Notes under the pieces: model-generated
Databases searched by the model: none
The model's input: the letters and a program-made list of their open reading frames with translations, nothing else
What the model was told of the DNA's origin: nothing
From: a virus
Length of the DNA: 9,574 nt
Strand: one strand, 5' to 3'
UHGV virus genome: UHGV-1960391
Position numbers and translations under genes: made by a program
In this document: in pieces, positions 3,892 to 4,166 of the stretch
How positions within the stretch are numbered: position 1 is the first letter of the stretch
Layout: every line of letters begins with the position of its first letter

Positions 3892-3970
3892 GGTGTTAAA
3901 GTGTTAACAGGTTAACACTCATAATTTTTATGGGTCAAGTGAAAATGTTGTCTTGTTAAACTGTTAACAA
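3892..3970. promoter_or_regulatory. Divergent promoter/operator region with repeated TGTTAA(A/C) half-sites between Rep and the RHH regulator
   Basis: GTGTTAAAGTGTTAACAGGTTAACAC (3892-3918) and TTGTTAAACTGTTAACAA (3953-3970): two about 18-bp direct repeats each built from TGTTAAA + TGTTAACA, including three palindromic GTTAAC cores; AT-rich spacer with CATAAT (3920-3925) and GGTCAA (TTGACC on minus). Confidence 0.4.
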
Positions 3971-3983
3971 TGGAGATGGGCGA

Positions 3984-4166
3984 ATGAAAAGAAAGGCAAT
4001 AGCAATTACAGAATCAACATATCTGGATATTACTAGAATAGCCCTTGAGATAAGCCAAAAAACAGGGCAAATAGTTACATGGTCGGAAGTTGTACACTTT
4101 ATGATAAAAAACTACTTAAACGACGCAAAACAAGACATGATCCACCAAAGAAACCAAAAAAAATAA
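3984..4166 (+). CDS. Ribbon-helix-helix (CopG/Arc/MetJ-like) DNA-binding protein, candidate phage repressor/regulator
   Basis: 60-aa ORF with SD GGAG about 8 nt upstream. Sequence MKRKAIAITESTYLDITRIALEISQKTGQIVTWSEVVHFMIKNYL fits the RHH pattern (basic N-term, alternating beta-strand AIAIT, helix A, G-x turn, helix B). Divergent from Rep, the arrangement of rstR/rstA-like control modules. Confidence 0.55.
   Translation: MKRKAIAITESTYLDITRIALEISQKTGQIVTWSEVVHFMIKNYLNDAKQDMIHQRNQKK

Follow-up and report, generated by a model that had tools for sequence, protein, structure and literature searches.

How is the replication gene of a filamentous prophage held in check, and is a very small gene facing it responsible? 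The question is raised by the UHGV virus genome UHGV-1960391, a stretch of 9,574 nucleotides (hereafter the window) that contains part of an E. coli filamentous (inovirus) prophage which integrates at dif. Between positions 3,892 and 4,166 an open reading frame (ORF) for a protein of 60 residues, preceded by an intergenic region rich in short repeats, diverges from the minus-strand ORF for the replication protein, Rep. The initial annotation, made from the sequence, read the small protein as a ribbon-helix-helix (RHH) regulator, the repeats as its operators and the whole as a lysogeny or replication switch. The analysis described here leads us to the same view, to which we assign a probability of about 0.75: the 60-residue protein is a cooperative RHH repressor of Rep in the style of MetJ and CopG, and forms a phage immunity module.

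The reality of the gene was considered first. The ORF at 3984-4166 points away from Rep, as had been described, and has an ATG start codon served by a GGAG Shine-Dalgarno sequence. Its closest relatives are encoded at two related loci, L013 and L014, with protein identities of 85% and 83%, respectively. In comparison with these loci, the proportion of synonymous differences (pS, 0.67-0.84) is saturated and the proportion of non-synonymous differences (pN) is only 0.08-0.14, a pattern indicating that the gene is under strong purifying selection and is a real, conserved gene.

A word-indexed protein search with the single sequence returned 3 close clusters only; the wider family came into view with an exhaustive profile search. 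This search gave 44 representatives when clustered at 50%, and a profile search with word indexing gave 105 clusters at 90%. Nearly all members are 58-70 residues long, none carries a Pfam domain, and their hosts are filamentous prophages of E. coli, Salmonella, Klebsiella, Aeromonas and Vibrio. A close-alignment search for related loci found none in genome contigs and only an identical copy in viral contigs. The protein matches phrog_2503 (E 5.6e-27), a group with no assigned function or fold, and in the prophage of strain 377323_2f the Prokaryotic Genome Annotation Pipeline (PGAP) labels its gene 'hypothetical protein' (WP_021559714.1).

Structure prediction indicates that the 60-residue protein very likely belongs to the RHH fold class. 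The predicted local distance difference test score (pLDDT) of the AlphaFold2 monomer model was 82.9 with 3 sequences and rose to 94.9 with 42. The latter model has an extended segment at residues 1-9, a helix at 10-27, a five-residue loop and a second helix at 33-59, which is the β-α-α topology expected of an RHH-like monomer. DSSP assigns no strand to the model, since a monomer lacks the partner strand. On comparison with solved RHH structures the model proved similar to them, the best structural match being TraM.

The residue pattern of the family agrees with this model. Over 42 sequences, ribbon columns 6 and 8 are occupied by large hydrophobic residues in 93% and 100%, respectively, and columns 5, 7 and 9 are polar and variable, with no more than 2% hydrophobic residues. 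A glycine turn and a serine or threonine at the N-terminus of helix B, the latter a contact to the DNA backbone in RHH proteins, are present: G28 of the inter-helix loop is found in 34 of the 42 sequences (81%), all 42 have T or S at position 34, and 38 have D or E at position 35. The loop itself is about two residues longer than that of CopG. Furthermore, three longer members (P0010, P0046 and P0047, 129-142 residues) contain two family units within one chain, as expected if the unit acts as a dimer. Judged by their sequences these are potential single-chain pseudo-dimers, and the 60-residue protein itself would act as a dimer. A helix-turn-helix (HTH) domain was not found: no Pfam HTH family matched the protein or its relatives, and the model consists of only two helices after an extended N-terminus; the contrast that had been drawn with rstR, RHH rather than HTH, is supported by these predictions.

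The intergenic region was then defined. A divergent gap does exist, as stated in the initial annotation, but it measures 114 bp (3870-3983) if Rep begins at the ATG at 3869, and not 93 bp; the smaller value arose because an upstream GTG at 3890 had been assumed as the Rep start. The alignments indicate that the ATG is most likely the true start. It is the PGAP start in a prophage whose junction from Rep to the 60-residue gene is 100% identical, and the N-terminus of the L013 Rep, only 30% identical, aligns starting at the methionine of this ATG.

Within the gap, TGTTAAAGTGTTAACA at 3894-3909 shares 94% identity with TGTTAAACTGTTAACA at 3954-3969, and a third, overlapping copy of the repeat is found at 3902-3917. 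The three GTTAAC palindromes reported previously were all located (3903-3908, 3911-3916 and 3963-3968). The repetition formerly described as 18-bp direct repeats is likewise real, but is better seen as tandem arrays of an 8-bp box with the consensus TGTTAACA, a perfect palindrome. Three tandem boxes, TGTTAAAG-TGTTAACA-GGTTAACA, make up the putative operator O1, and two good boxes with one degenerate box, TGTTGTCT (degenerate)-TGTTAAAC-TGTTAACA, make up the putative operator O2. The two arrays lie 52 bp apart, or about five helical turns, in a common 8-bp register. One strand carries five KGTTAAM sites inside 80 bp, where the largest chance cluster was 2 in 500 Markov-1 simulations of the window and 3 when the intergenic region was shuffled 20,000 times. 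The clustering of boxes is far beyond chance.

Other elements were sought in the same region by inspection, and both a LexA box (CTGT-N8-ACAG) and a match to the consensus of an IHF site were absent. The weaker boxes (3894-3900 and 3954-3960) read TGTTAAA, a 7-mer that also occurs in E. coli dif, within the arm bound by XerD, TTATGTTAAAT (L001 4288-4315); this sharing is probably a coincidence.

O1 overlaps the candidate promoter of Rep, the presumed regulated target and first gene of a long leftward operon. Rep matches phrog_91, 'nicking at origin of replication' (1.5e-128), in addition to the Pfam family given in the table below. A -35-like hexamer reads TTGACC in the window, TTGACT in L013 and TTGATT in L014, in flanks that diverge, and a -10-like hexamer reads TAACCT in the window and TAACAT in both relatives, with an 18-nt spacer in all three. 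In each case the -10-like hexamer spans the junction between boxes 2 and 3 of O1. These leftward promoter positions are putative, read from the conserved hexamers; with the -10-like hexamer inside O1, occupancy of O1 would block the Rep promoter. O2 lies between the leftward -35-like hexamer and the Shine-Dalgarno sequence of the small gene, a position that makes autoregulation likely.

Comparison of related loci provided the evidence that links the boxes to the small protein. The three-box array of O1 is kept in L013 (2906-2929) and L014 (224-247), and two-box arrays are found at the place equivalent to O2 (L013 2958-2973; L014 277-292). The boxes of both loci read TGTTAACA or TGTGAACA, in a setting where spacers, leader and synonymous sites have diverged. 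Tandem 8-bp repetition extends to the wider family: self-similarity at a lag of 8 was positive in all eight intergenic regions first tested (summed z 16.7, about 5.9 standard deviations), and at a lag of 16 the same eight regions gave a summed z of 12.3. Over 12 loci, octamers of the form TGnnnnCA numbered 24 against 5.3 expected (z 8.2), in a test that is not fully independent since the pattern was picked after viewing three of the 12. The retention of boxes in L013 and L014 despite saturated synonymous sites, and the presence of separate 8-bp boxes in other subfamilies, support the earlier proposal that the repeats are operators.

The subfamilies differ in the type of box that they carry. 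Boxes of the TGTTAACA type occur in the window, L013 and L014, TGTGAnCA in Dulem virus 56, TGAGTTCA in L004 and L010, whose proteins have identical ribbons, and TGTATACA or TGTATGCA in L008, L011 and L017. The pair L008 and L011 is the most informative, with RHH proteins (P0105 and P0038) that are 83% identical, boxes of the common TGTATACA type, and Rep genes of unrelated families (PF05144 vs PF02486). At the level of sequence, then, the boxes follow the RHH protein rather than the Rep family. This counts against Rep iterons, a candidate that was rejected on these grounds, and against an accessory factor specific for one nickase, and it points to the boxes being the cognate operators of the 60-residue protein.

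The position of the gene is equally consistent. In every retrieved locus long enough to show Rep, the homologue is the first gene upstream of Rep and divergent from it; L014 is too short for showing a Rep gene. This arrangement holds for the window and 13 related loci with a Rep gene, across three unrelated Rep families: PF05840 in the window and L013; PF05144/PF05155 (Ff gene II type) in L004-L006, L008, L010 and Dulem virus 56, with PF05155 alone in L009; and PF02486 Rep_trans (RstA type) in L007, L011 and L012, with RstB in L011. In L017, a Vibrio phage, the depositor's notes name the neighbours 'DNA_replication_initiation_protein' and 'RstB...'. The analogy with rstR and rstA made in the initial annotation is supported by this placement, which includes phages with an RstA-type Rep_trans and RstB (L011 and L017).

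A more distant homologue, P0062 (32% identity), is present on over 1000 contigs. In a Salmonella prophage with structural genes of the Ff/IKe type, it is the first of the reverse-oriented ORFs beside gene II (PF05144/PF05155). In UPphi phages the region holds the reverse-oriented ORFs h3-h5, to which no function has been assigned (PMC7307601), and from position alone P0062 possibly corresponds to h3.

Taken together, these observations suggest the following mechanism. The 60-residue protein would dimerise, and the two-stranded ribbon formed by the N-termini of each dimer (residues about 3-9) would enter the major groove of TGTTAACA. Dimers would sit side by side in a cooperative, MetJ-like manner, one to each 8-bp box, so that O1 would take three dimers and O2 two or three. 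Occupied O1 would cover the -10 and start region of the leftward promoter, which would drive Rep and then the replication, structural and assembly genes, and all of these would be repressed together. Replication and virion production would thereby be switched off, and the lysogen would become immune to superinfection by phages that share its boxes. O2, just upstream of the ribosome-binding site of the repressor gene, probably gives autoregulation and may act jointly with O1, because the two arrays face the same side of the helix. Different box types would then define immunity groups. That the protein represses rather than activates, that it serves immunity and that one dimer binds per box is what we infer from the arrangement as a whole.

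A bolder extension of the repressor mechanism is doubtful. It would make the RHH gene and its boxes a portable heteroimmunity cassette, exchanged among inoviruses with three unrelated Rep families, in which a constant frame TG....CA surrounds variable centres (TTAA, TGAA, AGTT or TATA) read by ribbon residues 5, 7 and 9. The exchange would include the clinically common UPphi-like prophages and the classical phage If1. In addition, as the weaker boxes read the same TGTTAAA as the core of the XerD arm of dif, the repressor could touch dif or attP too, and a repressor bound there could couple repression to XerCD integration or excision.

Several results weigh against a cooperative RHH repressor at this locus. 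Pfam and NCBIfam scans of the 60-residue protein gave 0 matches, RHH models included, so that the claimed RHH pattern agrees with predicted structure and residue pattern but fails the profile check that had been suggested for it. When 42 members were scanned singly, sub-threshold matches appeared to ParG (6 of 42, best E 0.055), RHH_3 (E 0.034) and VapB. A profile of the 42 sequences searched against PDB sequences was also sub-significant, its best matches being TTHA0139 (E 0.088) and then ParG (1p94, E 0.14). Probabilities from hhalign were as low as 2% for CopG, 17% for a TTHA0139 fragment and 1.7% for a CopG-family alignment of 16 sequences that are too alike to help; the alignments themselves fall in the expected register, with helix A over helix A and strand over strand. 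Foldseek with the predicted model found no match in the PDB at E < 1. In the lack of a significant match to any curated family, the proteins form at best a separate family, whose one tie to the RHH superfamily is the predicted structure.

The promoter and the mode of recognition raise further difficulties. A scan of the intergenic region 3870-3983 for sigma-70 promoters and terminators returned none at threshold, and the promoter candidates match 8 of 12 consensus positions in the window. A rightward promoter was not placed with confidence, and several hand-picked hexamers were not conserved in L013 and L014. Finally, ribbon position 9 is T, N or K among close relatives that all retain GTTAAC boxes, and with this residue varying over unchanged boxes a simple residue-to-base code is not established.

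Four other explanations, which are jointly unlikely, were weighed against the repressor. The one that survives best, although improbable, makes the RHH protein a replication or nicking accessory factor similar to TraM, TraY or NikA, which would load or position the HUH Rep near the plus-strand origin and affect transcription only secondarily. The best structural match is indeed a relaxosome accessory protein, TraM, inovirus Reps are HUH nickases and thus relaxase-like, and the boxes adjoin the Rep gene. Near-identical RHH proteins with the same box type are nevertheless found beside unrelated Reps, which is unexpected for a factor that docks to a nickase. Moreover, O1 coincides with a conserved promoter-like -35/-10 pair, and the gene occupies the rstR position, RstA/RstB phages included.

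It is more improbable still that the boxes are sites of another protein, either Rep (as iterons) or a host factor, and that the 60-residue protein has an unrelated role. In its favour, the link between the protein and the boxes is so far one of sequence comparison, and RovA binds the equivalent promoter region of YpfPhi (PMC4266046). On the other hand, the sequence of the boxes varies with the RHH subfamily and not with Rep family or host, and the tandem 8-bp palindrome geometry fits known RHH operators (PMC3413123). Boxes and gene have also been kept together in L013 and L014, where the Rep N-terminus is only 30% identical.

There is even less to recommend an RHH antitoxin paired with the hydrophobic ORF at 4209-4364 and autoregulating that operon only. 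The protein ends soon after helix B, without a C-terminal toxin-binding extension, and O1 lies over the Rep promoter and not solely over the protein's own. The proposed partner is not annotated by PGAP, and the downstream ORFs of different loci are mutually non-homologous, being absent or swapped for unrelated genes in others. Least probable of the four is a ParG- or omega-like centromere-binding protein, with the box arrays as partition site of an episomal replicative form: although weak ParG matches, the short-repeat arrays typical of RHH centromeres and the maintenance role proposed for an omega-like RHH protein of phage PMBT54 (PMC10534721) speak for it, the phages concerned are dif-integrating, and their arrays comprise no more than 2-3 boxes and lie on promoter-like elements. 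Moreover, neither the gene calls nor the annotations of the window and of the retrieved portions of related loci include a ParA-type ATPase.

Repression of Rep by the small protein thus remains the preferred explanation, and several further observations were made around it. Short ORFs lie directly 3' of the RHH gene in the window (51 residues, plus strand), in L013 (3213-3323, 36 residues) and in L014 (543-650, 35 residues). All three encode a single hydrophobic helix followed by basic residues, in mutually dissimilar sequences, and the ORF of the window may belong to the repressor operon as its second gene, encoding for instance a small membrane exclusion factor.

Phage If1 (L015, NC_001954) carries an intact, unannotated 63-residue homologue at 1489-1680 (plus strand; about 5119-5310 in the record), within the annotated 'major intergenic region' (tblastn E 7e-6). 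Directly upstream of it is an IS200/IS605 element with TnpA (Y1_Tnp, 1.2e-27) and TnpB (OrfB_IS605, 2.3e-33, annotated 'ORF348'), whose insertion appears to separate the homologue from its former upstream neighbour. In L007 (2675-2857), L011 (2614-2850) and L012 (2608-2829), an extra minus-strand ORF of 60-78 residues, without a Pfam match, stands between the box region and the Rep_trans Rep and overlaps the Rep start; it is absent from the window.

The surrounding genes are those of a filamentous phage, and their coordinates are collected in the table together with the features discussed above.

Table. Coordinates of the repressor locus and of neighbouring phage genes in the window; operators, promoter elements and the second rightward gene are putative.
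Feature	Position	Strand	Basis or remark
Coat protein	846-1088	-	
G5P-like single-stranded DNA-binding protein	1422-1847	-	
Rep gene, P2 GpA-type HUH replication endonuclease	1878-3869	-	PF05840 Phage_GPA, E 2.8e-48
Operator O1 (putative), three tandem 8-bp boxes	3894-3917		Repeat analysis
-10-like hexamer TAACCT, leftward (Rep)	3909-3914	-	Sequence reading; 18-nt spacer from -35
-35-like hexamer TTGACC, leftward (Rep)	3933-3938	-	By eye; kept in relatives
Operator O2 (putative)	3946-3969		Repeat analysis
Shine-Dalgarno GGAG of 60-residue gene	3973-3976	+	Sequence reading; 7 nt 5' of the ATG
Gene for 60-residue predicted RHH repressor	3984-4166	+	ATG start; stop codon included
Possible second gene of rightward operon, 51 residues, one hydrophobic helix	4209-4364	+	Tentative; PGAP annotates none
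Secretin	4919-6178	-	
Zot-type assembly ATPase	6175-7233	-	
DUF2523 protein	7245-7532	-	
g3p-like protein with dipeptide repeats	7549-about 9230	-	

A megablast search of the phage collection with the whole window gave no match. Among 5426 complete E. coli genomes, 205 contained related prophages by megablast, none of them covering the whole window. Positions 10-4464 are 99.4% identical to tandem prophages of strains 377323_2f and 2015C-4136CT1, and those of 377323_2f adjoin a dif site. Two palindromic elements of 96 nt, 72% identical to each other, are located at 4369-4464 and 4554-4649. Each has inverted dif-like arms (GTGCGCACAA-N6-TATGT, 4371-4391 and 4556-4576) flanking a GC-rich hairpin, and by sequence they look like the folded attP sites for XerCD of the CTXphi/YpfPhi type. 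Similarity to other prophages breaks at 4369 and 4464. The two differing attP-like copies, 185 bp apart, and these breakpoints suggest that the window spans the junction of two different tandem prophages. A hairpin at 4399-4434 followed by TTTT could be a terminator of the rightward transcript.

The g3p-like genes contain long in-frame tandem repeats at 7832-8215 and 10-198, with periods of 12 nt (Gly-Thr/Gly-Ser runs) and 27 nt (a linker of the GGSTSGGSS type, minus strand). That these repeats differ again suggests that the window includes two different phages. A 63-residue ORF (9239-9430, minus strand) immediately upstream of the g3p-like gene shows a strand-helix-helix-like pattern and a weak match to PHROG 582, 'Arc-like repressor' (E 0.026); it may belong to the right-hand phage and encode another small protein of the RHH-like kind.

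The family is blank in the databases: its members are 'hypothetical protein' in RefSeq and GenBank, there is no Pfam or NCBIfam model, and its PHROG has no function. Our literature search found no paper on this family, nor on an experimentally studied inovirus RHH repressor, the nearest being an in-silico remark on an omega-like ORF of Pseudomonas phage PMBT54 (PMC10534721). The present analysis offers a testable function for it. A true repressor would set the timing of replication and virion release in dif-integrated prophages and decide which lysogens are open to superinfection by which phages, and box types would be immunity groups readable directly from sequence. The compact protein with its 8-bp boxes could also serve as a set of small orthogonal repressors. 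The novelty lies in the family, which was previously unannotated; the kind of system, a small RHH repressor with tandem short repeats, divergent from rep, is well known, and the mechanism would add nothing fundamentally new beyond MetJ, CopG, Arc, ParG and RstR.

Of these, MetJ offers the closest operator geometry. Its RHH dimer reads an 8-bp palindrome, AGACGTCT, that is present in 2-5 head-to-tail copies (PMC3413123), and in the locus described here 8-bp palindromes of the TGTTAACA type form tandem arrays of two or three, phased at exactly 8 bp. The 60-residue protein differs in being much smaller, without sequence similarity to MetJ, in its different biological role and in showing no evidence of a co-repressor. 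ParG binds box arrays adjoining a -10 element (PMC3413123), and CopG is the RHH repressor of a rolling-circle plasmid Rep gene, repB of pMV158 (PMC2724298). By analogy with CopG, Arc, Mnt, omega and ParG, the present protein would be a tiny RHH protein binding cooperatively to short repeats over promoter elements. Unlike the 60-residue gene, which is divergent, that of CopG is co-transcribed with rep, and the inter-helix loop of the 60-residue protein (G28 to W33-[ST]34) is the longer. The N-terminal domain of TraM from the F-like plasmid pED208 has only 15-17% sequence identity with it, and TraM has a C-terminal tetramerisation domain and works in conjugation.

In genetic arrangement the closest counterparts are filamentous phages. 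YpfPhi carries an RstR-like gene, YPO2273, at the same position (PMC4266046). The locus resembles RstR/rstA of CTXphi in its small putative repressor gene divergent from Rep and in its putative operators within a short intergenic region, and the phage resembles CTXphi in integrating at dif via XerCD. RstR and Pf4r are HTH proteins, whereas the 60-residue protein is predicted to be RHH and its putative operators are tandem 8-bp palindromic boxes, which would make it an analogue of these repressors and not a homologue.
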